A DNA stretch of 64,000 nt from an uncultured Acidimicrobiales bacterium (GTDB lineage Bacteria > Actinomycetota > Acidimicrobiia > Acidimicrobiales > SHLQ01), in contig CALHTB010000054.1 in the NCBI GenBank assembly GCA_938038785.1, positions 465-64,464 on the forward strand. The letters are read 5' to 3'. A program made the translations under genes and the position numbers. Below the pieces are notes generated by a model, which worked only from the letters and a program-made list of their open reading frames with translations, did no database searches and was not told where the DNA came from. Below, one piece after another: positions 47,471 to 63,919 of this stretch; the stretch's first letter is position 1; each line of letters starts with the position of its first letter.

Positions 47471-48595
47471 GTGTCCGCTTACCTCGACCACGCCGCATCA
47501 TCGCCGCTTCGCCCCGAAGCGCTCGACGCGATGCTGCCGTGGTTCTCCGAACAACACGCGAACCCAACGGCGTCGCATCGCCGTGGTCGACGCGCCCGTC
47601 AAGCCCTCGACGAAGCACGTGGCGTGCTGGCCGAAGCCACTGGTTTCACCCGAGGCGAAGTTGTGTTCACCGGCGGCGGAACCGAATCGGACAACCTCGC
47701 TATCGGTCGCAATCGACCCAGTGGTTCGATCATCGTTGGTGCCACCGAGCACCCTGCAGTCCTCGAACCCGCCGTCCGTCAAGGGGCCCACATTGCTCCG
47801 GTCAACTCGCGCGGTGTCGTCACCGCCGATGCAGTCGCGGCGCTTGTGACCGAGGCGACCGAAGTGGTGTCGGTTATGGCGGTCAACAACGAAACCGGGG
47901 TCGAGCAACCCATCGCGGCTATTGCGGCAGCCGTACACGAGCAGGCGCCCGACGCCCTGGTGCACTCCGACGCCGTGCAAGCACTTCCGTGGCTCGACCT
48001 AACAACCGCGGCAGAAGGTGTCGACATGCTGTCGGTCACCGGCCACAAGTTGGGCGGCCCGCAAGGCGTTGGTGCTGTGGTAGTCCGTGACGGCAAGATG
48101 CCCGAACCCCTGCTCGTCGGTGGGGGACAAGAACGCGACCGTCGGGCCGGCACCCAGAATGTTGCGGGCATCATCGGCTTCGCCGCCGCCGTCCAAGCCT
48201 CGATCGACGACCGGACCGAACGGCTTGCCCGCATCGACCGCCTCGCTACGCGGCTGCTCGATGGTCTTGTCGACCAGATCGATGGACTGGCCCCAACGGT
48301 CGATCGTTCGGTTCGGGTGCCCGGTATCGTCCACGTGTGCATCCCCGGTATCACCAGCGAACCGCTGCTGTTCCTGCTCGACGAACAGAGCCTCGCCTGT
48401 TCTGCCGCGTCGTCGTGTGCAAGTGGTGCCCAAGGTGCGTCACATGTGCTCGACGCCATGGGCGTCGACGCGGTCAACACCGCGCCACTTCGACTGTCTC
48501 TCGGCTGGTCGACCACTGACGCCGACATCGACGATGCGCTTCGGCTCATCCCCGCTGCGGTCGACCAATTGCGATCCGGGGGCCGACATGGCTGA
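47471..48595 (+). CDS. iscS: Cysteine desulfurase (IscS/NifS class I)
   Basis: YLDHAAS, FTGGGTESDN, NNETG, GHKLGGP, GGGQE..RRAGT, SAASSCAS motifs; overlaps mnmA. Confidence 0.9.
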   Translation: MSAYLDHAASSPLRPEALDAMLPWFSEQHANPTASHRRGRRARQALDEARGVLAEATGFTRGEVVFTGGGTESDNLAIGRNRPSGSIIVGATEHPAVLEPAVRQGAHIAPVNSRGVVTADAVAALVTEATEVVSVMAVNNETGVEQPIAAIAAAVHEQAPDALVHSDAVQALPWLDLTTAAEGVDMLSVTGHKLGGPQGVGAVVVRDGKMPEPLLVGGGQERDRRAGTQNVAGIIGFAAAVQASIDDRTERLARIDRLATRLLDGLVDQIDGLAPTVDRSVRVPGIVHVCIPGITSEPLLFLLDEQSLACSAASSCASGAQGASHVLDAMGVDAVNTAPLRLSLGWSTTDADIDDALRLIPAAVDQLRSGGRHG

Positions 48596-49619
48596 ACGTG
48601 TACTGGTCGGCATGTCCGGGGGAGTCGACTCCTCTGTCGCCGCGGCATTGCTCGTCGAACAGGGCTTCGACGTTGTAGGTGTCACGATGAAGCTATGGGG
48701 CGGCGAGTCGGACTCGGGCTGCTGCTCGGTCTCTGATGTCGACGACGCCCGGTGGGTGGCAAACCAACTCGGCATCGAACATCACGTGTTCAACTTCGGT
48801 GACGAGTTCAACGAGCATGTCGTCAACCCATTCGTCGATACCCATCGCACCGGGGGCACACCGAACCCATGCATCGAATGCAACCGCCACATCAAATTCG
48901 ATCTCTTCTTCGACCGGGCGTCTGTGCTGGGGTTCGACCGAATCGCCACCGGCCACTATGCCCGGATCGCCACGCTTGACGACGGCACCTTCCGCATGCA
49001 ACGCAGCATCGACCCGCTAAAGGACCAGAGCTACGTGCTCCACATGCTTGGTCAAGATGTGCTCGCCCGCGTCCTGTTGCCAATCGGCGGGTGGCACAAG
49101 CCCGACCTGCGCGCTGAGGCCGAACGACGAGGCCTAGTCACCGCAGGCAAGCCCGACAGCCAAGACGTCTGCTTCATCACCAAGGACGGTGGGCGTGAGG
49201 ATTTCCTCGCAGCACGCGGTGGCTTGACCCCGGGTGTGATTCTCACCGAAGACGGAAAGCAGGTCGGCGAAGTGCCAGCGACCGAGCTCGTGACCATTGG
49301 ACAGCGCAAGGGTTTGAACGTCTCAGGAATGAGCGAGCCGCAATTCGTGGTCGATGTGAATCTGCAAGAGTCCATCGTCACCATTGGTCCCCGCCGCTCG
49401 CTGCAGGACATAGAGACCGGCTTCACCCAACCGGTGTGGGCCCACGAACCATTCACCGGCGATGCCCTAGTGCAAGCCAGCGCGCACGGCACAGCGTTCC
49501 CAGCAATCGTCGAGTTCGACCGCGTCGTATGGCACAAGAACCGTGACCGCATCGCCCCCGGCCAAAGCCTCGTCTTCTACGACAACGACCTCGTCATCGG
49601 CGGAGCAATCGCCACCTAA
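48588..49619 (+). CDS. mnmA: tRNA 2-thiouridine(34) synthase
   Basis: MSGGVDSS, TPNPCIECN, ATGHYA, KDQSY, KPDSQDVCF, TIGQRKG motifs. Confidence 0.96.
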   Translation: MAERVLVGMSGGVDSSVAAALLVEQGFDVVGVTMKLWGGESDSGCCSVSDVDDARWVANQLGIEHHVFNFGDEFNEHVVNPFVDTHRTGGTPNPCIECNRHIKFDLFFDRASVLGFDRIATGHYARIATLDDGTFRMQRSIDPLKDQSYVLHMLGQDVLARVLLPIGGWHKPDLRAEAERRGLVTAGKPDSQDVCFITKDGGREDFLAARGGLTPGVILTEDGKQVGEVPATELVTIGQRKGLNVSGMSEPQFVVDVNLQESIVTIGPRRSLQDIETGFTQPVWAHEPFTGDALVQASAHGTAFPAIVEFDRVVWHKNRDRIAPGQSLVFYDNDLVIGGAIAT

Positions 49620-49622
49620 TCG

Positions 49623-49679
49623 CCTTTATGGGGCCTGTCCCCATAAAGGTGTCTTTACGGGGACAGGCCCTATAAAGAC
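49623..49679. repeat. Inverted REP doublet downstream of the RAYT
   Basis: cctttatggggcctgtccccataaagg and gtctttacggggacaggccctataaagac. Confidence 0.92.
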
Positions 49680-49686
49680 GTTCGCG

Positions 49687-50256
49687 TTAGCCGGCAATTT
49701 GGTCGTCTTCGCCGAAGTTGATGGTCGGCGTTGCTTCGTTGAAGAGGCGAAAGCTCGCTTGATCATTGCCGAAGAGACCCAAAAGTAGGTCGGTGCACAT
49801 CCACTCGGGGGAGTGGGCTAAGCCGAGGTAGATACCGAAGCTCGACCACCGGTACGTGTCGAGCTCGGTGACACCAATGTCCTTCGGGTTTTGGTGGACG
49901 TATCGAACAGCGCTCATTAGATAGGGCTCGCTATCGATTGGGCTGTTGAAGAACCGGTCCTTGCAGAGCCTGCCGTCATAGCCATACCGGCGGTTGATGG
50001 CAGTGGCGTAACACATACCAATCCAGTGCATGACGTTCGACATGTTTCGCTCAGGGAACTGCGCGATGAGGTGGTAGTGATTGCCCATCAACGCGAATGC
50101 ATGGATGATGACACCGAACTTCGTGTGCGCCAGTCCAAGCAAATGTAGGAATAGATCTCGATCGATGTCGTCGAGGTAGATGTCGGATCGCCGCGCCCCA
50201 CGGTTTGTGATGTGGTGGAACTCAGCTTCGGGTTGATTGCGTGGTTTTCGTGCCAT
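49687..50256 (-). mobile_element. REP-associated tyrosine transposase (RAYT, IS200/IS605 Y1 HUH superfamily)
   Basis: MARKPR...HHITNRG, LMGNHYHL (HUH), RYVHQNP (catalytic Tyr), YRWSS; flanked by REPs. Confidence 0.92.
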
Positions 50257-50262
50257 TTCGCC

Positions 50263-50284
50263 ACCGTACGTGGCGGGTGTGACA
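50263..50284 (-). promoter_or_regulatory. Putative PafBC/RecA-NDp-type promoter, leaderless
   Basis: Minus strand reads TGTCAC-ACCCGCCACG-TACGGT-GGCGAA-ATG. Confidence 0.6.
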
Positions 50285-50301
50285 CGACGTGCACGAATCG
50301 G

Positions 50302-50326
50302 CTTTATGGGGACAGGCCCCATATAG
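50302..50326. repeat. REP element upstream of the RAYT
   Basis: ctttatggggacaggccccatatag. Confidence 0.9.
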
Positions 50327-50333
50327 ATGAGGC

Positions 50334-51683
50334 CTAGGCGAGGGCGGCGATGATTTCGGCGATCTCGTCGGTGGTGGTGCGGGGGTTGATGAAACAGAAG
50401 CGGTAGATCGGCTTGCCATCGAGGCGCGATGGCGTGACGAAGGCGAGGCCCTCGTTCATCGCCTTTTCGCTCCACGCCTGGTAGTCGTCGGGGCCCCAGC
50501 CTGTGCGGGTGAAGGCCACGACAGACAGCGACGGCTCGTGGGCGAGCTCGAGATAGTCGACGTTGCGGATCATCTCGGCGGCCGCATCGGCTAGATCGAG
50601 CGTGATGTCGACCGCGGTCGTGTAGGCATCTGTGCCGTGGGTTGCGAGGCTGAACCAGAACGGCAAGCCACGAACTCGTCGGGTGAGGTGAATTGCATAG
50701 TCCGACGGGTTGCGGTCGCCGTGGGCATCGAGGAAGGCCAGATACCCAGCGTGTTGGGCGTGCGCTGCCACCGCCTTGTCCGGGTTGCGGTAGAGAAGCG
50801 CACAGCAGTCGAACGGTGCGAACAACCACTTGTGGGGATCGACGATGAACGAGTCAGCAAGTTCGAGCCCGTCGAATTGGGGGCGGGTTCGCTCGGTGGC
50901 CAAGCCAGCGCCTCCGTACGCACCGTCAACGTGGAACCACACACCACGTTCGCGGCAGATCTCGCCAATCGACCGGAGATCGTCGATGACGCCCAAGTTG
51001 GTTGTGCCAGAGGTTGCTGCGACCGCACAGATTCGGTCGCCGTGTTCGTCGAGGGCCGCAGCAACGGCGGCGCCGGTCATGCGACGCTGGTCGTCGGTGT
51101 CGACGAGAATGACGTCGCAGTCCATGACCTCGGCGCCCGCTTTGATCGAGCTATGCGATTCCTTCGATGCAACGATTGCGAAACGCTGCGGACGGGCATC
51201 GCCGAGCCGGGTCTTCGCATCGTGGCGAGCAGCATGGAGAGCAGACAAGTTGCCAACCGTTCCGCCCGGAACAAACACGCCTTCGGTCCCGACCGGCATT
51301 CCGGCGATCGAACGAAGCCACTCGAGTGCTTCGTTCTCGGCGTGGACCGCGCCAGCACCCTCGAGCCATGAGCCGCCATAGATCGACGCCGCGCCTACCA
51401 CGAGGTCGAACAACACGGCGGCCTCAGTTGGGGCTGCGGGGACGAACGACAAGTACTTGGTGTAGTCGACCGACAGCGATGCCGGCTCGAGCACATCGAT
51501 GAACAGATCGAGCGCTCGGGTGCCACCAATGCCGTCTGGGGTGATCGTTGGGCCGCAGAGTTCGCGAAGTTCTTCTTCGGTCTTGGGGAAGTTCAGCGGA
51601 ATTGGATCGAGCCGTGTTCGCGCCTTCGCATACTCAAGAATTCGCTCGGCGAGCAGGTCGATACTCTCGTCGAAATGGTGCAT
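50334..51683 (-). CDS. Group II PLP-dependent amino-acid decarboxylase
   Basis: GGTVGNL, SHSS, GTTNLG.IDD, HVDGAYGG, DPHKWL motifs. Confidence 0.92.
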   Translation of the reverse strand: MHHFDESIDLLAERILEYAKARTRLDPIPLNFPKTEEELRELCGPTITPDGIGGTRALDLFIDVLEPASLSVDYTKYLSFVPAAPTEAAVLFDLVVGAASIYGGSWLEGAGAVHAENEALEWLRSIAGMPVGTEGVFVPGGTVGNLSALHAARHDAKTRLGDARPQRFAIVASKESHSSIKAGAEVMDCDVILVDTDDQRRMTGAAVAAALDEHGDRICAVAATSGTTNLGVIDDLRSIGEICRERGVWFHVDGAYGGAGLATERTRPQFDGLELADSFIVDPHKWLFAPFDCCALLYRNPDKAVAAHAQHAGYLAFLDAHGDRNPSDYAIHLTRRVRGLPFWFSLATHGTDAYTTAVDITLDLADAAAEMIRNVDYLELAHEPSLSVVAFTRTGWGPDDYQAWSEKAMNEGLAFVTPSRLDGKPIYRFCFINPRTTTDEIAEIIAALA

Positions 51684-51709
51684 GTCTTCTCCTTGGCGCG
51701 AACAAGTTG

Positions 51710-52822
51710 TTATTCGAAGAAGTCGAAGAGCGAGTCAAATTCGAGTTCGATCGAGCGTTCGGTTTCCCTATCGAGTGTGCCCCAATTGAAGAGACGGTTG
51801 CGGGTATCAGCATCAGGAAATACCAGCGGGTTCTCGGCAAGAGCTGCGCTGTCGCCGCCTTGAGACCGCAACACATCTTGGGTTCCGAGCACCGGGCACA
51901 CATACAAGTTCCATGCGGCGATCTCCGCCGCGTTCAGCGGGTCGTAGGCCCAGTTCATCCATTCGGCAGCCGACGCATAGTTCAGTGCGCCGAGCGGCAT
52001 GATCATCGTGTCGAACCACGAGATGGCGCCTTCGGTCGGGATGACGAACTCGAACCGCTCGTCTTCGAGCTGCAGAGCAGCGGCCTGACCCGACCACGCC
52101 ATCGTGGCGGCCAACGTGCCTTCCGTGAGGAAGTCAACAAAGTCGTCGAAGACGATCGCGTTGAAGTGGCCGTTCTCGACGTATTGCCGAATCTTCGCCA
52201 GGCCTGCCCGAGCCGTTCGAGCCGACGGCCGAGATGGGTCGTCGCCGTTCGACAACATGGCCAGTCCGACCGCCTCGCGCATCTCGCCGATGAGGCCAAC
52301 CCTGCCGGCGAGTTTCGAATCGAATAGGTCGTTGATCGAGCTGATCTCGCCGTCGACCAATTCGGGGTTGTAGGCAATGCCCGTCATGCCGCCTTGCCAC
52401 GGCATCTGAAAGCGTGAGCCGCGGTCCCAATCGTTGATGAGGTACGCCGGGTCGATGTTGACGTGGTTGGGGATTGCTTCGAGGGGAAGCGGCTCGGCCT
52501 TGCCCTGTTCGATGATCTGATCGGCCACCCAAAACGTCGGCGTGATGATGTCGTAGGTCGGGGTGGCACCGCCCAAGACCGGTGCGATGAACTCTTCGAC
52601 CCCCGAGACATTGTCGACGTAGACCTCGCGGTAATCGATCGATAGCCCGGTGGCGGCCTCGATCTTGGCGATCGTGGCGGGGTCGATGTACTCGGCCCAG
52701 TTGATGACGTTGAGCTGGCCGGTGCGAACGAGTGGACGGTTGCCGGTGCCGGCGCGCCCGCAGGCCCCGAGGGCAGTCATTGCGCCCGCTGCAGCGATGA
52801 ACTGGCGTCTGGTAAATCGCAT
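51710..52822 (-). CDS. PotD/PotF-type polyamine-binding solute-binding lipoprotein (Tat)
   Basis: TRRQF signal, LGAC lipobox, NWAEYID, EMRE, AWSG and SWFD motifs. Confidence 0.88.
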   Translation of the reverse strand: MRFTRRQFIAAAGAMTALGACGRAGTGNRPLVRTGQLNVINWAEYIDPATIAKIEAATGLSIDYREVYVDNVSGVEEFIAPVLGGATPTYDIITPTFWVADQIIEQGKAEPLPLEAIPNHVNIDPAYLINDWDRGSRFQMPWQGGMTGIAYNPELVDGEISSINDLFDSKLAGRVGLIGEMREAVGLAMLSNGDDPSRPSARTARAGLAKIRQYVENGHFNAIVFDDFVDFLTEGTLAATMAWSGQAAALQLEDERFEFVIPTEGAISWFDTMIMPLGALNYASAAEWMNWAYDPLNAAEIAAWNLYVCPVLGTQDVLRSQGGDSAALAENPLVFPDADTRNRLFNWGTLDRETERSIELEFDSLFDFFE

Positions 52823-52828
52823 CAGTGC

Positions 52829-54103
52829 CTACCAGTACTCGTTGATTCGAAGTTGGTACCCGCCGAGCGTGAGCAGTGCTGCGAGCATCGGCAGGAAGAT
52901 GGCACCCAGACGAAGCCAGCGCATCCGATTGCTGGCGCTGGCCACCGAGTCGTTGAACTGATCGCGGTTCGCCAGCAGCACGCTTTCGACCGTCGTGTTG
53001 AAGCCGTTAAAATCGGCGTTGCCTTCGGTGATCGCCAGGCTGCGAGCAGCGCTGGTGCCGTTGGCCTCGAGGGCGCTCCGCACCTTGGAGCTGGTGGATT
53101 CATAACGGTCCCAACGTGCCTTCAAGAGGGCGACGGCCCCCTCCTCTCGGGTCGAATCGGCTGAGGTAAGCAGCGAGTCCAGACGGTCCTCGATGACGCT
53201 GTTGCTTTCCTCCGAGGGAAAGACGTCAATGTCCTCGTTGATGATCGCGAGTGCTTCGGAGGTTTTGTACTCGAAAGCCAACGTTTGCAGCTCGGCGGTC
53301 AGGGCGATCGAGTCATACGCCTCGCTCTGTGCCGATTGCAGGTCGGCCTGCCGTCCAACGAGCGCCAGCGACAGCCAGATCGCGAGGCCGATCACGCAGA
53401 AGGTGGCGAGCACGAGCGGGATGTTGAACGTGCGACGTGTCCTGGCCCGAAGGTTTCGCTGCGCGAGAAGCAGAACGAGGAGCGACACCGCCAGGGCAAC
53501 CATCGCTCCGATCCACTCGAGGTAACCCGCCGAGAGATCGTCATCGAAGCCCGCCTGGGTACGGGACGTAACGATACGGGTGTTGTCGATCATGCCGTTT
53601 TCGCCGCTGACCAGCTCGAATGCCCTTTGCAGGTCGACAACCGCGGTTGGGTCTCCGGCCAGGTTTGCTGTGCGGGCACGTTCGGCCAGGCGGGCGTATT
53701 CGGGCAATTGGCTCGCCACCCGCTTTAGGGCCTCATGGGATTCGGGGTCCTCACCAATGCCGGTCGAGACATCCTCGAGCTGTTGGGGTGCCCGGCTAAT
53801 CGCGTTCTCGAACAGGCTCTGCTGCTGTCGGTCGGTGGCCGTTCCCGACAAGAACACCGCAGTGTTCGCTGCGTCAGCCTCGGCGATACTGCCTACCAGG
53901 CGCTGCGTCGAGATCAATACCGGGCCCGTGCTTCGCTCGACCTGATCGACGCTCGAAATGAATGCTTGGGTGGCAAACGAGGCGAAGATCGCGGCGACGA
54001 TCAGCAGGGCCGAGATAACGGTCGACCATGTTCGAAGACGTGCGGGTGTCGTTCGAAATCGGTCGGGGGATAGCCACGAGGGCCTGGCGACGGATGCAGT
54101 CAC
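52829..54103 (-). CDS. GlnX-like four-TM membrane sensor with two extracytoplasmic helical domains
   Basis: TTPARLR N-terminal motif, ADAA..A.FL, central RTRRTFNIPLVLAT between paired TMs, C-terminal RINEY; divergent from the pknG operon. TACGAT lies 6 nt before the GTG. Confidence 0.75.
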   Translation of the reverse strand: MTASVARPSWLSPDRFRTTPARLRTWSTVISALLIVAAIFASFATQAFISSVDQVERSTGPVLISTQRLVGSIAEADAANTAVFLSGTATDRQQQSLFENAISRAPQQLEDVSTGIGEDPESHEALKRVASQLPEYARLAERARTANLAGDPTAVVDLQRAFELVSGENGMIDNTRIVTSRTQAGFDDDLSAGYLEWIGAMVALAVSLLVLLLAQRNLRARTRRTFNIPLVLATFCVIGLAIWLSLALVGRQADLQSAQSEAYDSIALTAELQTLAFEYKTSEALAIINEDIDVFPSEESNSVIEDRLDSLLTSADSTREEGAVALLKARWDRYESTSSKVRSALEANGTSAARSLAITEGNADFNGFNTTVESVLLANRDQFNDSVASASNRMRWLRLGAIFLPMLAALLTLGGYQLRINEYW

Positions 54104-54160
54104 GTCGACATCGTAGAAGACTCAGCTCCCCGACGTGGTTTCGCCTATTCTTCCTCCGTA

Positions 54161-55387
54161 GTGAACACCGCAGAGATAGAACAACGGCGGACCTACTACC
54201 GCAGCGTCGTCACCCAATGGTCCGACAATCTCTACGAGCTCGATGAGCACCCGACGTATCGCCTGCTTGCGGCAGGCGAAATGAGTGGCGCTACCGGGAA
54301 GCAGACGAATCAGTTCATCGAATACGCCCCGCAACTGTGGGCATGGTTGGGCGATTTACGCGATCAACTCGACTCGGTCGACCAGCTCGTCGCGGACCGG
54401 TCGGTCTTCAACAACACCAACCAAGACATCGCCCTGCTCCTCGGAGCGCACTCGATTGCCCTGCCAGCTTCCTCGATTCCAAGAGTGTTGCCGAGCTCGG
54501 TTCGCGACCAGATGGAGCAGTCTCCAGGTGACCACCGCACGTTGCTTGTGTCGTGCGACGGACTCATCGAACTGTTTCGGGCGGTCTATGAACCCATCCG
54601 CGATGTCGTTGCTCGTGTTGATGCGGTGTGGCGCGATCTGCGGCCGCGTATCGACGCCGCCAACGTCACGCTCGACCGGGCCAACGGCGTGTCGCAGCGC
54701 CTGTCGTTCCGGCTCCCTGAAGTGATGCGAGCAACGCAGCGTCTCGAAGCGGTGAAGGCATCGGTTGCCGACGACCCCCTGAGCTTGTCGTCGCGTGTTG
54801 GCCCTGACCTCGACGAACTCGTCGCGGCAGCCGCGGCCGCAGCCGGAAAGCTCGAGCGCGATCATGGCAGTCTCGATTCGGACCTCCAGGGAACAGACCG
54901 AATCCTCGCCGACCTTCGAGTACTACGAGCCCGCGCCGCAGCGGCCTACTCCGAAGCAGACGCCAAGGTCATTCCCCCAAAGGGGCTGATCAAGGTTCCC
55001 GGAACGTCGGTCATCGACGGCCAGAACGGGTTGGCCCATCGGGCCGCTCAGATCGTTGGAGAGGCCGCCGCGTCGGGCTCTCGGCAGTGGCAAGAGGCCC
55101 GGCGAGAACTCGATGCATGGCACCACTCGGCCACCCGCCTGCGCGAACAGCTCACCAAGGCGCTCGAGCAGAACACGGCTCCGATTCACCAGCGCAACGA
55201 GCTGCGCGGCCGGTTGCAGGCGTACCGGGTGAAGGCCGACATGTCGGGCGGACTGCCCTCTGACATCGCGGCGCTTGGTCAGCTCGCCCACGACGAGCTT
55301 TACACCAGCCCCACCGACCTGGGCCGGGCGCTCGAGCTGATCGACAAGTTCGCGGCGCAACTGGCCATCTATGGTGGTGAGTCATGA
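54161..55387 (+). CDS. Helical hypothetical protein preceding pknG
   Basis: Ala/Leu-rich helical sequence with RNELRGRLQAYRVKA...LYTSPTDL; overlaps the pknG start (ATGA). Confidence 0.8.
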   Translation: MNTAEIEQRRTYYRSVVTQWSDNLYELDEHPTYRLLAAGEMSGATGKQTNQFIEYAPQLWAWLGDLRDQLDSVDQLVADRSVFNNTNQDIALLLGAHSIALPASSIPRVLPSSVRDQMEQSPGDHRTLLVSCDGLIELFRAVYEPIRDVVARVDAVWRDLRPRIDAANVTLDRANGVSQRLSFRLPEVMRATQRLEAVKASVADDPLSLSSRVGPDLDELVAAAAAAAGKLERDHGSLDSDLQGTDRILADLRVLRARAAAAYSEADAKVIPPKGLIKVPGTSVIDGQNGLAHRAAQIVGEAAASGSRQWQEARRELDAWHHSATRLREQLTKALEQNTAPIHQRNELRGRLQAYRVKADMSGGLPSDIAALGQLAHDELYTSPTDLGRALELIDKFAAQLAIYGGES

Positions 55388-57903
55388 ATGCGTGCACGCA
55401 ATTGGGCTGCGATGGCAGCATCGCGGCCGATGGCTATTGCAACACGTGCGGGTATGCGGGCAAGCACATCCCGGCAGTAGAAAGCCATCTGCCGCCTCCA
55501 CCCCCACCACCGTCGTCATCGACCCCCGTCTCGGCGTCGATGCCGCCACCAAGCCCGCGTCCGCCAACCAACAGCGCCGCGTCAGGTGCGGCCTGCACCG
55601 AACTCGGTTGCGATGGCACGGTCGCAGCCGACGGCTATTGCAACACCTGCGGCATGCAACCCACCGTTGCCGAGACGCCCTCGAGCTCTGGTCCGTCCGC
55701 CATGGCTTCGGGTCCGGTTTCCAACTCGGCCGGGGGCGAATCGTCGACCACCGCCACCGCCACGATCGCTGTGCCTACGTCGCCCACGATCGCAGTTCGG
55801 ACCGCCGGGGGAGGCGAAAGCCGCCGCACACGCACGCTGCGAAGTACGTCGAACCGGGCCGAACTCGGAGCGGGGCTCGTGCACATCAGCCCCACGCTCG
55901 CGGGCGACCCCGCGTTGGCGGTTATGTCCGACGAGAAGGTCGCCAACGCCCTTGGCGAAACCCCCGAGGCCGAACGCTTCTGCTCGTCGTGCCAAGAACC
56001 CGTTGGGCGGGCGCTCAACGACACACCCGGTCGAGTCAAGGGCTTCTGCAACAACTGTCGAACCCGTTACGACTTCACCACGAACGCGCCGAAGCTCAAG
56101 GCGGGCGAACTCGTCGGCGGCCAGTACAAGATCCTCGGGCCGATCGCCCACGGTGGTATGGGATGGATCTACCTCGGCCAGGACACCGCGGTGTCGAACC
56201 GCTGGGTTGTGCTCAAGGGCCTCCTCAACGAAGACGACGAGGACGCGGTGGCCTCGGCTGTTGCAGAGCGCCAGTTCCTCGCCCAGATCGAACACGGCAG
56301 CATCGTCAACATCTACAACTTCGTCACCTGGGACGGCGCTGGCTACATCGTCATGGAGTACGTCGGCGGCGAATCGCTCGTTTCCAAGCTGAAGGACCGG
56401 CGCAAAGAAAACGGCGGCCGCCCAAATCCGCTGCCGGTGACCGAGGCAATCTCCTACATGCTCGGTGTGCTTCCCGCGCTCGGGTACCTCCACGGCCAGG
56501 GGCTGGTGTACAACGACTTGAAGCCGGCGAACATGATGGCGGTCGGCGACGGCGTCAAGCTCATCGACGTGGGCGGCGTGATGCAGGCCGACGACAACTC
56601 TGCGGCCATCTTTGGCACGCAGGGCTTCCAGGCTCCAGAGGTAGCCGAGATGGGGCCGTCGATTTCGTCCGACCTCTACACGGTTGGTCGAACGCTGGCG
56701 GTGCTCTGCCTACACTTCGTGTTCCATCAGGGTGAGTACCAATACGACCTGCCCACCCCCGCCGACGAGCCTCTATTCGACCAATGGGAGTCGTTCTACC
56801 GGTTCTTGCTGAAAGCAACCGCAACCCACCCCGACGATCGATTCCAGTCGGCTGACGAGATGGGCGAGCAGATGTTGGGCGTGCTCCGAGAGATCGTGGC
56901 GATTAGCCAACGATCACCTCGCCCTACCACCAGTTCGCTGTTCGGTGGCGACCGGCTGGCCGGCATCATGCTCGACGATGACACGATCGACGACGCGGAC
57001 TGGCGGGCCCTCCCAACCCCAAAAGTGTCTCCCGACGACCCCGGCGCGGCGTTCTTGTACGACCTTCCCGAGCTCGACCCGGAAGCAACGATTCGGTTGA
57101 TCGACGAGGGTCTGTCGTCGGGCACGGCCCCCGATTCGGTTGAGGTTCGCCTGCGTCGTGCCCGTGAGCTCATCGACTTGGGCGGCGCCCCGAACGACGT
57201 GTTGCGTGCTGTCGAACACTTTGACCCGTGGGACTGGCGAGTGACCTGGTACCGGGCGCTCGAAAAGCTGCGTCAGGGAACTCCCGAGGCAGCCAAGTCG
57301 GCCGCCGAGGGTTTCAGTCGGGTGTGGACCGAGGTTCCCGGCGAGTTGGCACCGAAGCTTGGTGTAGCCCTGTCGGCCGAACTCGCAGGTGAATATCACC
57401 GCGCTGCCGACCTCTACGCCGAGGTCATCGGCGTCGACTCGGGCTACGTGTCTGCGGCCTTCGGCCTGGCCCGATGCCGTGCAGCTGCAGGCGATCGCAA
57501 AGGCGCCGTCGACGCCTACCGGGCGGTGCCGCCGAGCTCGGCTACCTACACCGAAGCCCAGGTCGCGTCAGCTCGAGTTCTCGTTGGAGCCAACGACGAC
57601 ACGGCACCCAACGCGGCCGACGTGGCAGCGGCAGCTCAGACGATCGAGGCCGCCCGCATCGATGGTGCTGCCCGGGCAAAGCTGGCCGCCGAGGTGCTCG
57701 AGGGGGCGCTCCACGGCATCGAATCGGGCGTAATGGCCGAGGACGAGGGCTCTCGTGTGTTTGGAAACCCGCTCACCGCGAAGGGTCTTCGCCGTAGTCT
57801 CGAAGACACGTACCGAGATTTAGCTCGCATCGCCGAGACCGCCGAAGAACGTTTCGAACTGGTTGATAAAGCCAACCAGGTTCGCGTGCCGACACTGATT
57901 TAG
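55384..57903 (+). CDS. pknG: PknG-like Ser/Thr kinase (rubredoxin + kinase + TPR) with duplicated N-terminal Cys motif
   Basis: ERFCSSC...GFCNNC, IAHGGMGWIYL, RWVVLKGL, AERQFLA, YNDLKP, GFQAPE; C-terminal TPR region ending LVDKANQVR. Confidence 0.88.
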   Translation: MNACTQLGCDGSIAADGYCNTCGYAGKHIPAVESHLPPPPPPPSSSTPVSASMPPPSPRPPTNSAASGAACTELGCDGTVAADGYCNTCGMQPTVAETPSSSGPSAMASGPVSNSAGGESSTTATATIAVPTSPTIAVRTAGGGESRRTRTLRSTSNRAELGAGLVHISPTLAGDPALAVMSDEKVANALGETPEAERFCSSCQEPVGRALNDTPGRVKGFCNNCRTRYDFTTNAPKLKAGELVGGQYKILGPIAHGGMGWIYLGQDTAVSNRWVVLKGLLNEDDEDAVASAVAERQFLAQIEHGSIVNIYNFVTWDGAGYIVMEYVGGESLVSKLKDRRKENGGRPNPLPVTEAISYMLGVLPALGYLHGQGLVYNDLKPANMMAVGDGVKLIDVGGVMQADDNSAAIFGTQGFQAPEVAEMGPSISSDLYTVGRTLAVLCLHFVFHQGEYQYDLPTPADEPLFDQWESFYRFLLKATATHPDDRFQSADEMGEQMLGVLREIVAISQRSPRPTTSSLFGGDRLAGIMLDDDTIDDADWRALPTPKVSPDDPGAAFLYDLPELDPEATIRLIDEGLSSGTAPDSVEVRLRRARELIDLGGAPNDVLRAVEHFDPWDWRVTWYRALEKLRQGTPEAAKSAAEGFSRVWTEVPGELAPKLGVALSAELAGEYHRAADLYAEVIGVDSGYVSAAFGLARCRAAAGDRKGAVDAYRAVPPSSATYTEAQVASARVLVGANDDTAPNAADVAAAAQTIEAARIDGAARAKLAAEVLEGALHGIESGVMAEDEGSRVFGNPLTAKGLRRSLEDTYRDLARIAETAEERFELVDKANQVRVPTLI

Positions 57904-57906
57904 CCC

Positions 57907-58953
57907 ATGACCGAGACCCCTCCAGAACCAACAGAATCCCAAGCCCTGAACATTCCTGACTTTCCGAAGGTCGACGATGTCATCCATCTCGGTGGCGCGG
58001 AACCAGACGCAGATCCGCCAGAGGCACAAACGTGCCCGGCGTGTGGCGTCCTTGGGTCGGCGGATGCTTCATGGTGCGAAGCGTGCGGGTCTGACTATGC
58101 CGGTGAACATGCAGCGTTGTCCGGCCCGCCGTGCATCGATTGTGGCGCCGCGCACGAGAACATCGTCGAGGGCTACTGCGGCGACTGTGGCCGCAAGCAG
58201 CCAGGCGAGCGTGATCATCAGGCCGAGATCGTGGGTGCAATTGTGGCTGCGAGCGACCGAGGGTTGCGGCACCATCAGAACGAAGATTCCTACGCCATTG
58301 GCCAATCTGGCGATCGCCTGATTTCGGTTGTGTGCGACGGCGTTTCAACCACCAACGATCCCCAGGACGCGTCGCTTGCCGCTGCCACCGCGGCTCGTGA
58401 CAGTTTGCAGGCTGCACTCGACGCTGGCGATACCGACATCGAGGCCGCTTTGGTCGCTGCAGTCGCTGCGGCACAGGAGGCGGCCGCGGCAGTTCCGCTC
58501 GGCGCCGGTTCCGATGGTCCGGCGTCCACCACGATCGTCGCATCTGTTGTCGGCCCTGACCCCAGCGATCCAACGATGGTGAAATCGTGGCACGCGTGGC
58601 TTGGCGACAGCCGCGCGTACTGGATGCAGGATGTCGACGGCGCACCGACCGTCACTCAACTCACCACCGACGACGTATTCGAAAACAGCATCACCCGTTG
58701 GCTGGGCGCTGACGCCACCGACACCACCCCGGGCATCGTCATGGGCGAGCACGATGCGGGCGGTCAGCTGTTGGCGTGCTCCGATGGGCTGTGGAAATAC
58801 GTGCCCGAGGAAGAGCAGCTCGCCGAGTTACTGAAGACGCTTCGTGCCGACAATCCAGACCTGGCCGGTCTTGAACTGGCTCAAACGCTGGTGGCATTCG
58901 CAAACGAACAGGGCGGACACGACAACACCACCGTCGTGATCGCACAGCTATAG
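57907..58953 (+). CDS. PP2C-family Ser/Thr phosphatase with N-terminal zinc ribbons
   Basis: SDRG...NEDS, VCDGVS, GDSRAY, CSDGLW, GGHDNTT motifs; four CxxC pairs. Confidence 0.92.
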   Translation: MTETPPEPTESQALNIPDFPKVDDVIHLGGAEPDADPPEAQTCPACGVLGSADASWCEACGSDYAGEHAALSGPPCIDCGAAHENIVEGYCGDCGRKQPGERDHQAEIVGAIVAASDRGLRHHQNEDSYAIGQSGDRLISVVCDGVSTTNDPQDASLAAATAARDSLQAALDAGDTDIEAALVAAVAAAQEAAAAVPLGAGSDGPASTTIVASVVGPDPSDPTMVKSWHAWLGDSRAYWMQDVDGAPTVTQLTTDDVFENSITRWLGADATDTTPGIVMGEHDAGGQLLACSDGLWKYVPEEEQLAELLKTLRADNPDLAGLELAQTLVAFANEQGGHDNTTVVIAQL

Positions 58954-58977
58954 AGAAGTCAAAACAAGGAGAGCGGC

Positions 58978-60267
58978 GTGACGCAGTTCAGTGCAAACGT
59001 GTTTCAGAACGAATACTTGCCCGAGGGCGGAAATGTGGTCGATGCGGTCGTCACCGTCACGTCGTCGGAAGGGGAGTCGCAGGCGTCGATGCCCACCAAT
59101 GTCCCGATCGTCGAGGTCATCGCCGTCGATGTGTCCGGGTCGATGAACGAGGATGGTGGCGCCAAGATTCGCGCCGCACGCGATGCAACGATCGCTGCGC
59201 TCGATGTCCTCGAACCGGGAACCCTGTTTGCGGTGATTGCCGGTAACCACCAGGCCCGAGCGCTCTACCCAACGCACGGCGGCTTGGCAACAGCCGACGC
59301 CCGCACCATCGCTGAAGCAAAACAAGCCGCCACGCGGATCTACGCCGACGGCGGCACCGCCATTGGATCGTGGCTTCGGGGTGCGACCCAGCTCATCCAG
59401 GGGCATCGCAACTCGATTGCGCATGTCATCTTGTTGACCGACGGTCGAAACGAGCACGAGCAGCCATGGGAGCTCGACGCCGCAATCGCCGACGCTGTTG
59501 GCCTGTTCGAGTGTGATTGCCGCGGCCTTGGCACCAGCTGGGAGCCAGACGAGCTCCGCAAGATCTCGAACGCCTTGCTCGGCACGACCGACATCATCCC
59601 AAGCCCGGGCGAAATGGAAGCCGAATTCAGGGCTCTCACCCAGCAGACCATGGCCAAGCAGGTCGCCAACGTAGCGCTGCGCCTTTGGACTCCGAAGGGG
59701 TCCGAGATCCAGTTCGTCAAGCAGGTGTCGCCAAACCTCGAAGACATGACCAACAAGAGCGAAGCTGTCGACGCGCTCTCGCGTGATTACCCGCTCGGCT
59801 CGTGGGCCGACGCCGAAAGCCGTGACTACCACGTGCGAATCGCGATCCCCACCGGCGGTATCGGCGACGAGCGCCTCGCCGCTCGAGTCATGCTGGCGGT
59901 GAACGGTGAAGCTGAACCGGTGGCGCTGGTCCGCGCTATCTGGACCAACGATGACGCGCTCAGTACCCGCATCAACCGTGAGGTTGCCCACTACACCGGG
60001 CAGGCCGAACTCGCCGACGCCATCCACGACGGGTTAGCCGCACGTCAAGCGGGCGACGAGAAGAGTGCCACGCTCAAGCTCGGTCGGGCGGTGCAAATCG
60101 CACACGAAGCGGGCAACGATGGCACGGTTCGCCTGTTGCAAAAGGTCGTCGAGGTCGACGACCCCAAAACCGGAACCGTTCGCCTGAAGCGCGCAGTGGC
60201 TGCAGAAGACGAAATGGCCCTCGATGTTCGTTCGACCCGCACTGTTCGGGTCGAACGGAAGAGCTAA
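58978..60267 (+). CDS. vWA domain-containing protein
   Basis: MIDAS motif DVSGSM, GGTAIG, LLTDG; AGGAG RBS. Confidence 0.92.
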   Translation: MTQFSANVFQNEYLPEGGNVVDAVVTVTSSEGESQASMPTNVPIVEVIAVDVSGSMNEDGGAKIRAARDATIAALDVLEPGTLFAVIAGNHQARALYPTHGGLATADARTIAEAKQAATRIYADGGTAIGSWLRGATQLIQGHRNSIAHVILLTDGRNEHEQPWELDAAIADAVGLFECDCRGLGTSWEPDELRKISNALLGTTDIIPSPGEMEAEFRALTQQTMAKQVANVALRLWTPKGSEIQFVKQVSPNLEDMTNKSEAVDALSRDYPLGSWADAESRDYHVRIAIPTGGIGDERLAARVMLAVNGEAEPVALVRAIWTNDDALSTRINREVAHYTGQAELADAIHDGLAARQAGDEKSATLKLGRAVQIAHEAGNDGTVRLLQKVVEVDDPKTGTVRLKRAVAAEDEMALDVRSTRTVRVERKS

Positions 60268-60269
60268 CT

Positions 60270-60941
60270 ATGGCTACCTGTACGAACGGCCACGAGTCTG
60301 AATGGGAGGACTACTGTTCGGTGTGCGGCGAGTCATTGGGCGCTCCTGCGGCCAGTGAAGAGGCAGCTACCGCGCTCGAAGAGCCCGCGGCTGGCGAACC
60401 GCTCGAGGCTGGACTTAGCTGTCCGAACTGCAGCGAACCGTACGCTGCCGGAGACGTGTTCTGCGAGAACTGCGGATACGACTTCTTGTCGGGAACGCTG
60501 CCAGAAGAAGTGGCGCCGGCTGCACCGGTAGCCGGGTCTGAATCTGGACGAGCGACCGTGAGTATCGACCCTGCGTTCTTCGAGCGGATGCAGTTCGCCG
60601 GCGTCGAACCACCAGCCGAACTACCTGAACCGGTCACGATCAACCTTCCACCAACCGACATTCTCATCGGCCGCCAAAGCGACACCCGGGGCACGTTCCC
60701 CGAGATCGATCTTGGGTCGATCTTTGGCGAGGACTCACCGGCGACCGACCCGGCCGTGTCCTCGAGCCACTGTCGTCTGCATCGCGGTGCCAGCGGCTGG
60801 ACAATCACCGACCTCGACTCCACCAACGGCACCTTCCTCGGCGATGACACCGACGCCCTGACACCGGGCCGCCCGATGAGCCTCATGCCAGGCACCCCGA
60901 TCTACGTCGGAGCTTGGACCAAGATCGAGCTGCTCGACTGA
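60270..60941 (+). CDS. Zinc-ribbon / FHA domain protein
   Basis: CTNGH..DYCSVCG, CPNC...FCENCG; FHA motifs IGR, DPAVSSSH, DLDSTNGT. Confidence 0.9.
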   Translation: MATCTNGHESEWEDYCSVCGESLGAPAASEEAATALEEPAAGEPLEAGLSCPNCSEPYAAGDVFCENCGYDFLSGTLPEEVAPAAPVAGSESGRATVSIDPAFFERMQFAGVEPPAELPEPVTINLPPTDILIGRQSDTRGTFPEIDLGSIFGEDSPATDPAVSSSHCRLHRGASGWTITDLDSTNGTFLGDDTDALTPGRPMSLMPGTPIYVGAWTKIELLD

Positions 60942-60970: not shown

Positions 60971-61846
60971 CTAGCCGATCTCGATGCCTCGTTCTTTGGC
61001 CTCGGCAACTACCTGACCGGGCCGGTTGGGGCTGACGATAAAGCCGTCGATAGTGGTGAGGTTGACCTCTTCGGTGTCGCGCTCTTGGGCGTTGAGGATG
61101 ATCTTCGTCGGCTCTTTCAATTCGGCACGAAGCGCGAGCCCGAGGCCATTGAGGCTGAGGTCTTCGAAGCCCGAATCGGCCGGGGCCGGACCCAACGCGG
61201 CGATGTCTTCTTTGCGAAACAGCTGCGGTTCACGCAGTGCTGTCTTGTCGTGGACGACTAGCCCCCGTGGAACAAAGACCAGCCAACGTTCTGACAGTCG
61301 GTGCAAGACCGGGACAGCGAAGTAGGCGAGCGCCCAACCGGCGGCCAGCGCGATACCACCGAGAACCAAGCGCTGGGCGAAGAGCAACAGGGGGCCCAGG
61401 GTGGCGCCACCGGCGATGGCGAGCCAGACAAGTTGAATCGGCCCGACCATCAACGCTCCCGGAGTGCGAAGTAGAAAGCGACGCTCGTCGCCATAGGACG
61501 ACCCATCAGCAAACTCATCACCGACGGCGCTGGTCAAGGCCAGTAGAAAAGCTGCCCCCGCACCCACCAAGCCAACAGCGATCGCCGTAGCACTATCAGC
61601 CGCGAATGAAGCCCAGATAGCGGCCACGAACGCCAGGGGAGCAACCACGCGCAACAACGTCAGCGTCTGCGTTCGTGGAACCATCGACGCAACCAACATG
61701 ACGGCCCACACAGCCCACAAGGTCAACGACACGCCGAGCTGAAACGGACGCTCGGTATCGGCGAGCGCGGCGGCAAACAACGGGCCAGCCGTGAACGGCA
61801 ACACAAGCCAAACGGCTCTGAAGAGCCACAATTCGATCTGCAACAC
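60971..61846 (-). CDS. Hypothetical membrane protein
   Basis: About 6 TM segments plus a C-terminal soluble domain. GTG start has TACGTT 7 nt upstream. Confidence 0.78.
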   Translation of the reverse strand: MLQIELWLFRAVWLVLPFTAGPLFAAALADTERPFQLGVSLTLWAVWAVMLVASMVPRTQTLTLLRVVAPLAFVAAIWASFAADSATAIAVGLVGAGAAFLLALTSAVGDEFADGSSYGDERRFLLRTPGALMVGPIQLVWLAIAGGATLGPLLLFAQRLVLGGIALAAGWALAYFAVPVLHRLSERWLVFVPRGLVVHDKTALREPQLFRKEDIAALGPAPADSGFEDLSLNGLGLALRAELKEPTKIILNAQERDTEEVNLTTIDGFIVSPNRPGQVVAEAKERGIEIG

Positions 61847-61879
61847 CCCGGTAAACGTAGCGACACAGCTCAGCGATAA

Positions 61880-63919
<2,040 letters not shown>

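Follow-up and report, generated by a model that had tools for sequence, protein, structure and literature searches.

The window analysed here, a 64,000-nucleotide stretch of contig CALHTB010000054.1 from an uncultured acidimicrobial bacterium, carries a locus (positions 50,334 to 60,941) that probably serves, in our judgement, as a variant input to GlnX-PknG signalling, directed at the sensing of amines. On the minus strand, a gene for a membrane relay of the GlnX family (52829-54103, 424 amino acids) is followed, after 6 nucleotides, by a gene for a substrate-binding protein (SBP) of the PotD/PotF family, a lipoprotein (51710-52822, 370 amino acids), and, after a further 26 nucleotides, by the third gene of the unit, which encodes a group II decarboxylase dependent on pyridoxal phosphate (PLP) (50334-51683, 449 amino acids). 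The Ser/Thr kinase PknG is encoded on the plus strand, in a divergent operon that begins 57 nucleotides away. In passages of the published work on Mycobacterium and Corynebacterium glutamicum, the pathway is described as running from the binding protein GlnH, which senses aspartate and glutamate, through GlnX to PknG and on to GarA or OdhI (PMC6069109, PMC9769921, PMC8546545). The comparison of loci presented below gives good support to a swap of this GlnH-type sensor for a PotD-type one.

The glnX-SBP-decarboxylase unit recurs across species

An open reading frame map of the window reproduced the coordinates and the gaps of 26, 6 and 57 nucleotides, in agreement with the minus-strand run of three genes, divergent from a hypothetical-pknG-PP2C-vWA-FHA operon, that an earlier note on this DNA (hereafter the original prediction) had described. 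The same arrangement is found in many relatives. A first survey of 61 related genomes, with records labelled as uncultured Acidimicrobiales or Acidimicrobiia, found a GlnX-like protein in 27, including 20 of the 25 congeneric ones. Among the 26 loci fetched, a PotD-like gene adjoins glnX in 23, and the decarboxylase gene comes next in 21 of these, the other two stopping at a contig edge. A scan with an SBP profile over one genome per species (185,579 species), which also included two narrow peptide patterns, yielded 62 loci that overlap those of the first survey. GlnX is encoded immediately upstream of the SBP in 60 of the 62, the two exceptions being a contig that begins at the SBP (L102) and a locus whose GlnX match is limited to the N-terminal part (L127). 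The decarboxylase gene lies immediately downstream of the SBP in 57; in another (L092) it lies 2.8 kb downstream, and in the last four (L104, L107, L129 and L131) the contig ends at most 1.3 kb from the SBP. Where both genes are complete (49 loci), the spacing between GlnX and SBP ranges from a 14-nucleotide overlap to a 115-nucleotide gap, with 4-nucleotide overlaps being frequent.

PknG is present in 45 of the 62 loci, divergent as in the window in 30 and co-directional in 15, the latter having the order hyp408-pknG-PP2C-vWA-FHA-glnX-SBP-decarboxylase, where hyp408 denotes a conserved hypothetical gene. The 17 loci with no PknG match comprise five with hyp408 at the contig edge, three with PP2C, vWA or FHA at the edge, seven with less than 1.8 kb upstream of the SBP and two with full 8-kb flanks (L093 and L094); at L093 (genome G030), PknG is found about 13 kb off on the same contig. 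Within the genus, GlnX and SBP occur in the same 20 of 25 genomes, and in the remaining five (83-91% complete) neither a PknG_TPR domain nor a module-type decarboxylase was found. The recurrence of the glnX-SBP-decarboxylase arrangement in dozens of species-level genomes goes far beyond chance, and the outcome that the original prediction had named as damaging to it, an adjacency not conserved in relatives, is contradicted by these counts.

A divergent GlnX with a conserved cytoplasmic face

The proposal that 52829-54103 encodes a GlnX homologue is borne out by sequence model, topology, fold and C-terminal motif. The protein matches the family model NF058618 ("GlnX family signal transduction membrane protein") from residue 17 to 423, that is, over positions 1-412 of 413 in the model (E 2.6e-65), and it matches NF041460, which describes the PknG-activating GlnX of actinomycetes, over model positions 29-438 of 439 (E 2.5e-28). 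On the latter, an equivalog model, it scores 99.2 bits at a cut-off of 780; judged by these scores, the window protein is a divergent member of the family and not the mycobacterial equivalog. No enzyme domain appears among its Pfam and NCBIfam matches. Four membrane segments (27-45, 195-213, 231-249 and 397-415) are recognizable, and an AlphaFold model based on 50 orthologues (predicted local distance difference test, pLDDT, 93.1; predicted TM-score, pTM, 0.84) is all helical, with helices from 19-86 to 350-423, and places two four-helix bundles in the periplasm, at residues ~46-194 and ~250-396. Passages on C. glutamicum GlnX likewise describe a protein that crosses the membrane four times and has two four-helix bundles in the periplasm, and they report similarities to MCP2201 and Tar (PMC9769921).

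In a domain-level search with VIA-align, bundle 1 (59-188) matched the LytS sensor domain of XylFII-LytS (Z 17.5; root-mean-square deviation, rmsd, 1.6 over 119 residues), and bundle 2 (258-388) matched the ligand-binding domain of MCP2201 (Z 17.4), with Tar, TorS, NarX and PcaY ranking lower; the matches to four-helix-bundle sensor domains span Z 16-18. This similarity of the modelled fold supports the family assignment without proving it. The top rows of a Foldseek search with the whole model (TTYH channels and MATE transporters) had TM-scores of about 0.2 and were set aside, the domain-level search being the informative one.

The cytoplasmic parts of GlnX carry an N-terminal TPxRxR motif, R224 and N227 in the loop and a C-terminal R-I-N-E-Y motif (the protein ends R-I-N-E-Y-W). 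According to passages of a 2026 preprint on M. smegmatis GlnX, the C-terminus is highly conserved and an E437A/Y438F double mutant fails to complement (10.64898/2026.07.02.735984); E422 and Y423 of the window protein are equated with E437 and Y438 by their C-terminal position and not by alignment.

A polyamine-type binding protein with no transporter beside it

The SBP begins with MRFTRRQFIAAAGAMTALGAC, which combines a twin-arginine signal (RRQF) with a lipobox (LGAC, Cys21). It matches SBP_bac_8 at 68 bits, and the profile search suggested with the original prediction supports the PotD/PotF assignment, with E-values near 1e-22 for both NCBIfam models: 7e-23 for PotD (81 bits, cut-off 582) and 2e-22 for PotF (79.6 bits, cut-off 636). 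On these scores, it is a divergent member of the PotD/PotF family and an orthologue of neither protein. Its relatives in the PDB are mostly polyamine binders: 21 of the 23 matches at E ≤ 1e-5 are named as polyamine, putrescine or spermidine binders, the two without such a name being Lmo0810 and 6nlp, and the E-values of the polyamine-binding set extend from 6e-36 to 1e-10. The best relatives are Listeria Lmo0810 (4gl0, 6.3e-36) and Streptococcus pneumoniae PotD (4eqb, 1e-32), and the comparisons with E. coli PotD and PotF, Lmo0810 and pneumococcal PotD have E-values from 6e-36 to 3e-22.

The ligand-binding positions are largely retained. The ligand contacts of E. coli PotD, which we take to be W34, T35, E36, Y37, S83, Y85, D168, E171, W229, W255, D257, Y293 and Q327, correspond in the window SBP to W42, A43, E44, Y45, T96, W98, E180, E183, W243, W269, D271, Y307 and E353; the E. 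coli potD and potF sequences were taken from the K-12 record, where the letters at these positions were as expected. Eight of the 13 positions are identical and four are conservative replacements (S to T, Y to W, D to E and Q to E), T35 being replaced by Ala. The motifs NWAEY, EMRE, AWSG and SWFD, which had been pointed out as PotD-like, are all present in the translation and align to PotD ligand residues, and C21, W42, Y45, T96, W98, E180, E183, W243, W269 and D271 are invariant among 50 SBP orthologues.

A search of the whole window contig with E. coli PotA, PotB and PotC (tblastn) gave no PotB- or PotC-like match, and its sole ABC (ATP-binding cassette) ATPase match was a weak one (28% identity) at 20569-21255, about 30 kb off. 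A GlnH-type match was likewise absent from the contig, in keeping with the observation that no ABC permease, ABC ATPase or GlnH gene accompanies the locus; nor did any of the 62 SBP loci contain a PotB or PotC match. The window genome is a 3.67-Mb metagenome-assembled genome (MAG) of 134 contigs and 73% completeness, in which one PotABC-type operon was found, on contig C61. A PotD is encoded in this operon itself; its identity is 33.6% to E. coli PotD and 24.5% to the window SBP. The same picture emerges in three congeners of higher completeness (G009, G015 and G007), of which one is a single closed contig: the lone strong PotB homologue adjoins an SBP_bac_8 gene. The best SBP_bac_3 gene of the window genome lies in an SBP-permease-ATPase operon on contig C70, and two weaker matches are on contigs C47 and C66. 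Two further objections anticipated for the original prediction were that the SBP might be the partner of a remote PotABC transporter and that a GlnH encoded elsewhere might be the true partner of GlnX; the former is disfavoured by the PotD that the only PotABC-type operon found already has, and the latter by the transporter operon in which the best SBP_bac_3 gene sits. The four nearest SBP relatives without GlnX linkage that were examined (37-39% identity) are all encoded in operons that also specify two permeases and an ABC ATPase.

As a separate observation, the potABCD operon (G000:C61:23873-32668) lies about 3.6 kb from a gene for a class III aminotransferase (259 bits on the dat model, cut-off 402), and this proximity may reflect a link to polyamine catabolism.

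Exchange of the sensor along one GlnX clade

Across the class, the position behind glnX is held by two different kinds of binding protein. The GlnX family model found a match in only 10 of the 301 genomes sampled. At seven loci, belonging to other families, the genes run glnX, a GlnH-type SBP, a hyp408-like gene, pknG, PP2C, vWA and FHA, with no match to the decarboxylase; an eighth locus, in G037 of the window's own order, shows this GlnH-type arrangement too, its SBP being SBP_bac_3 by Pfam. The PotD-type unit also occurs outside the window's order, in G272, where its layout is co-directional. The claim that a polyamine-type receptor has taken the GlnH slot is thus upheld, in that the window SBP belongs to a GlnX-linked PotD subfamily and SBP_bac_3 proteins follow glnX elsewhere in the class. 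One genome of the window's own family (G031) carries two paralogous GlnX-SBP_bac_3 pairs (L055 and L056, on contigs C67 and C193) away from its single pknG, next to genes for an aldehyde dehydrogenase and a DUF3048 protein.

We placed 61 GlnX proteins (50 PotD-linked, 10 GlnH-linked and one other) in a tree from a quick maximum-likelihood run of IQ-TREE, rooted at the midpoint; L085, with coordinates and identities equal to those of L084, L066, whose contig is that of L109, and the frameshifted L064 were left out. All 50 PotD-linked proteins fall on one side of a branch with a support of 100 in the Shimodaira-Hasegawa-like approximate likelihood ratio test (SH-aLRT), and their nearest neighbours are the G031 pair. 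The cytoplasmic residues T19, P20, R24, R224, N227, R419, E422 and Y423 are kept in both the 50 PotD-linked and the 10 GlnH-linked proteins (E422 in 47 of the 50 and Y423 in all 50; both in 10 of 10), whereas invariance, or something close to it, at the periplasmic residues E75, R104, R319, R330, R333 and E373 is confined to the PotD-linked ones; the residues predicted for docking (see below) do not match between the two sets. This sequence pattern suggests that the kinase-facing side of GlnX has stayed unchanged while the surface of the ectodomains changed along with the type of SBP.

Two further GlnX-family loci deserve mention in their own right. At L067 (G302:C48, 150-2514), a divergent GlnX-family protein (E 2.4e-52 with the profile hidden Markov model) is followed, in place of either SBP type, by a 364-amino-acid protein with no Pfam family, perhaps a partner of GlnX of yet another type; a PknG operon was not detected nearby. 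At L064 (G352:C1:403593-404874 and downstream), a second GlnX copy is spread over two adjacent model pieces in different frames, with its GlnH-type neighbour split as well, and is apparently a decaying duplicate.

A predicted interface between the SBP and both GlnX bundles

The original prediction had proposed modelling the SBP together with GlnX. A complex prediction with GlnX residues 25-424 and SBP residues 33-370, each with a 50-row alignment, passes its controls, scoring 0.72 (median of three runs) compared with 0.00 for the best of three controls; by an approximate calibration, 58 of 80 solved complexes and 2 of 110 mismatched pairs reach the 0.72 mark. The three runs have at least 93% of their contacts in common, and the pLDDT of the partners is at least 88. 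On the GlnX side, the predicted interface consists of the tip of bundle 1 (75 and 89-104) and helices of bundle 2 (318-333 and 363-378), and on the SBP side it consists of residues 111-137, 197 and 338-342.

The residues at this predicted interface are more conserved than the background in both proteins, with 0.66 versus 0.52 in GlnX, a value reached by 23 of 10000 random subsets, and 0.76 versus 0.65 in the SBP, reached by 224 of 10000. The four transport-type relatives of the SBP keep 8-10 of the 13 pocket positions but only 4-5 of the 21 interface positions. Distant GlnX-linked SBP orthologues (45-48% identity) keep 14 of the 21. In particular, H120, R134, G135 and R137 are invariant only in GlnX-linked SBPs and coincide with the predicted contact area for GlnX.

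The decarboxylase and its product

The third protein of the unit is a clear Pyridoxal_deC member (PF00282; 8e-54, 183 bits) with no hydrophobic segment or signal peptide. Its best NCBIfam model is that of L-2,4-diaminobutyrate decarboxylase (198 bits, cut-off 900), with PanP (119, cut-off 606) and MfnA (103, cut-off 299) scoring lower, and its best relatives in the PDB are DOPA decarboxylase (7xin), DfoJ (5o5c) and 4obu, at E-values of about 1e-46 to 1e-44. It is roughly equidistant from DOPA, lysine (DfoJ), tryptophan, diaminobutyrate, cysteine-sulfinate and glutamate decarboxylases. All 120 matches listed from a protein database are orthologues of at least 65% identity that bear automatic names only. 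Within the genus, the decarboxylase is the best-conserved protein of the unit (73-90% identity, compared with 40-85% for GlnX). Class III aminotransferases scoring below the Dat/EctB threshold occur in five of five genomes. The second proposal of the original prediction, that this enzyme makes the sensed amine, has indirect support only, from the company that it keeps with the PotD-type module and from the lack of a match at GlnH-type loci. The decarboxylase is strictly tied to the PotD-type module, so its product is plausibly linked to the ligand that is sensed, and it may be the signal itself, a precursor of it or a homeostatic counterpart of the ligand.

Homologues of 44-59% identity have heterogeneous neighbours (TauD, Rieske and 2-oxoglutarate (2OG) oxygenases; a Cys/Met PLP enzyme with a sulfatase; FAD oxidoreductases; PFK and MFS proteins), and we rejected a transfer of function from these contexts. 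Within this set, one homologue of 54-57% identity (L134, G001:C22) lies beside TauD-family, Rieske and 2OG-Fe(II) oxygenases, and another in the same identity range (L135, G042:C1) beside a Cys/Met-metabolism PLP enzyme and a sulfatase, which hints at a role of that sister group in the metabolism of sulfur amino acids or taurine.

The kinase operon and the flanking genes

The 57-nucleotide intergenic region (54104-54160) between glnX and hyp408 presumably holds the promoters of both divergent units. A scan for consensus promoters gave nothing within it, and a promoter and terminator scan of 49500-55500 gave a site count not above that of shuffled sequences. The divergent operon opens with hyp408 (54161-55387, plus strand), a conserved hypothetical protein of 408 amino acids with no Pfam or NCBIfam match, whose gene overlaps the start of pknG by 4 nucleotides. 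A homologue of hyp408 precedes pknG at PotD-type and GlnH-type loci across the class, and the protein may be a further component of the pathway; the ESM Atlas returned only uncharacterised actinobacterial clusters for it.

PknG itself (55384-57903, plus strand, 839 amino acids) has the rubredoxin (PF16919 PknG_rubred, 1.9e-17), kinase (PF00069 Pkinase, 4.7e-26) and TPR (PF16918 PknG_TPR, 3.6e-70) domains of its family and is the sole PknG_TPR match in the window genome. Its C..C motifs are at residues 19, 86, 200 and 222, with two extra Cys4 repeats in an N-terminal extension: residues 1-92 (55384-55660) hold two zinc-ribbon-like CxxxxC...CxxC repeats ahead of the rubredoxin domain. Zinc ribbons are also found in the PP2C and forkhead-associated (FHA) proteins of the operon, and shared ribbons of this kind reportedly resemble the vWA-PP2C-kinase triads known from comparative genomics.

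The remaining three genes of the operon, all on the plus strand, encode a PP2C phosphatase with an N-terminal double zinc ribbon (57907-58953, 348 amino acids; PP2C_2 at 3.4e-9, Stp1-type PP2C at 3e-20 and DZR_2 at 4e-4, the last under its cut-off), a von Willebrand A (vWA) protein (58978-60267, 429 amino acids; VWA_3_C at 6.2e-22 and VWA_3 at 5.2e-11), which is the best-conserved of the kinase-operon genes across loci, and a zinc-ribbon and FHA protein (60270-60941, 223 amino acids; FHA at 1.9e-9 and Zn_Ribbon_1 at 4.7e-6). By its domain content, the last of these is a possible reader of phospho-threonine or a possible substrate of the kinase. As regards other substrates, an ETTS-type N-terminal motif is presumably the mark of GarA and OdhI, and a crude scan of the window genome gave seven FHA matches, none of those examined having such a motif.

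On the other side of the unit, an IS200-like Y1 transposase domain (PF01797, E 4.4e-6) is encoded at 49687-50270 on the minus strand, between the decarboxylase gene and mnmA (48087-49619). The listed open reading frame (49687-50829) overlaps the decarboxylase gene in another frame, and its true start is probably internal; the spacing between decarboxylase and mnmA differs between relatives. Beyond the FHA gene and convergent with it, positions 60971-61897 of the minus strand encode a 308-amino-acid protein with several hydrophobic segments and no family match, which is kept at the same position in many congeneric loci.

A proposed signalling route and its alternatives

Taken together, these results can be arranged in a route in which the PotD-type protein, exported by the twin-arginine pathway and lipid-anchored, would bind an extracellular cationic amine, most likely a di- or polyamine, and would dock onto both periplasmic four-helix bundles of GlnX. 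The signal of occupancy would then cross the membrane through the GlnX helices that are continuous with the bundles, and the cytoplasmic N-terminus, the loop and the R-I-N-E-Y tail would act on the TPR domain of PknG, which in turn would act jointly with the co-encoded PP2C, vWA and FHA proteins. The replacement of GlnH by the PotD-type protein would have been a single event, placed at the base of one clade of GlnX, and the cytoplasmic decarboxylase, presumably co-transcribed with it, probably makes the sensed amine, its precursor or a competitor.

We consider this reading of the locus, as an amine-sensing input to GlnX and PknG, to be the probable one, and several points weigh against it. As for GlnX, its score on NF058618 (221.2 bits) is below the curated cut-off of 250, Foldseek gave no match in the PDB for the whole model at E ≤ 0.001, and high Z-scores are commonplace for helical bundles. 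The docking score is the model's own confidence, and custom alignments were used, so that its calibration is only approximate; the enrichment of conserved residues at the interface could also stem from another partner. The PotD family includes binders of non-polyamine compounds, and the ligand class is therefore a suggestion from homology; moreover, the SBP orthologues vary at position 43 (Ala, Ser or Pro) and at position 44 (Glu or Asp). The decarboxylase reaches no substrate-specific NCBIfam equivalog among those for diaminobutyrate, aspartate, tyrosine, histidine and glutamate, its homologues of 44-59% identity occur in module-free genomes in unrelated contexts, and a canonical diaminobutyrate transaminase (Dat/EctB) scored above its cut-off in none of five genomes. 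On the kinase side, crude scans of the window genome for the ETTS motif and FHA domains gave no convincing GarA- or OdhI-like substrate. The 62 loci were found through the SBP itself, the PotD-linked set thus being defined by the feature that was then counted, and many of them are close kin rather than independent cases. Finally, all genomes are MAGs of uncultured organisms, the evidence is drawn from sequences and models throughout, and statements of absence for the window genome are weak because it is 73% complete.

Other explanations of the locus differ in what they make of the decarboxylase and of the two adjacencies. The boldest of them holds that the unit both makes and senses its signal, with a diamine produced by the decarboxylase leaving the cell and being read by the SBP, GlnX and PknG as a population-level self-signal, in the manner of norspermidine and NspS-MbaA in Vibrio cholerae. 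The position of the decarboxylase gene, straight after the SBP in 57 of the 62 loci and in both layouts but with no match at GlnH-type loci, fits such a circuit, as do the acidic and aromatic polyamine pocket of the SBP and the presence of diamine-forming enzymes (2,4-diaminobutyrate decarboxylase and DfoJ) among the relatives of the decarboxylase; there is also a precedent, reported for NspS-MbaA, for an orphan PotD homologue that senses a self-made polyamine (PMC5646818, PMC8079147). Yet the decarboxylase scores 198 bits where its best substrate model demands 900, it is cytoplasmic with no exporter identified at the locus, the canonical diaminobutyrate transaminase is above cut-off in 0 of 5 genomes, and co-transcription would be just as expected if the cell were regulating its own production of amines by feedback. 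A self-made signal therefore strikes us as unlikely. If it did exist, it would mean a Hanks-type kinase driven by a self-made, quorum-like amine cue, a kind not described for such kinases, and it would cast GlnX as a general socket for unrelated SBPs of the GlnH type, the PotD type and perhaps the third type seen in G302.

The remaining two alternatives each dissolve one of the adjacencies. Several SBPs commonly share one transporter, and the window SBP might be an extra, or dual-role, binding protein of a remote PotABC importer that is merely co-regulated with a GlnX sensing alone. It is, after all, a genuine PotD/PotF homologue, its nearest relatives without GlnX linkage are transport proteins, and a PotABC operon does exist in the window genome; direct binding of ligand by GlnX has been raised as a possibility in a passage of PMC9769921. 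Against this, GlnX precedes the SBP at every locus that has upstream DNA, and the stop codon of the one gene often overlaps the start codon of the other; the PotABC operon comes with a PotD that shares just 24.5% identity with the window SBP; H120, R134, G135 and R137 at the predicted interface differ in transport-type relatives; and residues of the GlnX ectodomains co-vary with the type of SBP, all of which makes a spare transport protein highly improbable. The least probable of the explanations we weighed is that the trio works independently of PknG, for instance by regulating the decarboxylase, or some other membrane partner, in response to amines, with its place beside pknG being inherited synteny. 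It could draw on the two loci whose 8-kb flanks contain no PknG, on the GlnX-GlnH pairs of G031 that lie away from pknG and on the two alternative places, with respect to the kinase operon, that the trio occupies as a block. However, 45 of the 62 loci contain PknG and most of the remainder are truncated by a contig end, at one of the two PknG-less loci (L093) PknG is 13 kb off on the same contig, the five congeners without the trio are also without PknG, and the cytoplasmic motifs are kept, including the E-Y tail that is needed in M. smegmatis.

Relation to known systems

PknG is one of the most thoroughly studied Ser/Thr kinases of bacteria, and the sensing of aspartate and glutamate by GlnH is the only input described for it. 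Text searches of the open-access literature, apart from supplements, turned up no account of a binding protein of the polyamine type partnered with GlnX or PknG, and the passages of the key GlnX and GlnH papers, supplementary operon surveys apart, mention neither polyamines nor Acidimicrobiia. A passage of the GlnH study had predicted amino acid binding for all PknG-linked binding proteins (PMC6069109). The locus appears to be a natural sensor exchange, to another fold class and probably another type of ligand, in which the kinase-facing motifs of GlnX are unchanged, and it suggests that a nutrient-sensing PknG pathway can be re-aimed at amines. It amounts to a natural experiment by which the GlnX residues on the binding-protein side can be told from those on the kinase side, it speaks for a modular GlnX relay, so that chimeric sensors become testable, and it offers a candidate amine-sensing route in the abundant uncultured Acidimicrobiia.

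The closest precedent for the sensor is NspS-MbaA of V. cholerae and Sinorhizobium meliloti, in which an orphan SBP of the PotD family is reported to act as a polyamine receptor by docking on a membrane transducer in place of a transporter (PMC5646818, PMC8079147, PMC9993111), the norspermidine sensed by the Vibrio system being made by the cell itself (PMC5646818, PMC8079147). In both cases, an orphan PotD homologue is encoded beside a membrane transducer, and the likeness is one of principle only: MbaA is a GGDEF-EAL enzyme with a cyclic di-GMP (c-di-GMP) output, whereas the transducer here is GlnX and the proposed output a Hanks-type Ser/Thr kinase. As a putative receiver of binding proteins, GlnX resembles the sensors of XylFII-LytS (5xsd) and TorT-TorS (3o1h), on whose SBP-receiving domains its ectodomains superpose (for TorS, Z 12.6 and rmsd 2.8 over 120 residues). 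Those two sensors are histidine kinases whose chains each contain a single sensor domain; a GlnX chain contains two bundles and lacks a kinase domain. The window SBP, in turn, keeps the aromatic box and the acidic ligand contacts of E. coli PotD and PotF, Lmo0810 and S. pneumoniae PotD, but it differs from transport PotD/PotF proteins in having no adjacent potABC and in being predicted to be Tat-exported and lipid-anchored, and from its transport-type relatives in the conserved surface stretch 111-137.

The system shares most with GlnH-GlnX-PknG itself. The topology and fold of GlnX are the same, the gene for a lipoprotein SBP comes straight after glnX, the E-Y motif is present, and PknG has its rubredoxin, kinase and TPR domains. 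In a published AlphaFold 3 model, as described in a passage of the source, GlnH contacts both ectodomains of GlnX (10.64898/2026.07.02.735984), and the window SBP is likewise predicted to touch both. The differences lie on the input side and in the gene order: a group II decarboxylase belongs to the unit, which is divergent from pknG or downstream of it, and pknG is preceded by hyp408, a gene that does not figure in the actinomycete glnX-glnH-pknG operon as described in passages of the literature, and followed by PP2C, vWA and FHA genes, with GarA or OdhI not identified. Above all, the SBP is of the PotD/PotF type (SBP_bac_8) and not of the GlnH type (SBP_bac_3), and its pocket is of the polyamine type rather than one for aspartate or glutamate.

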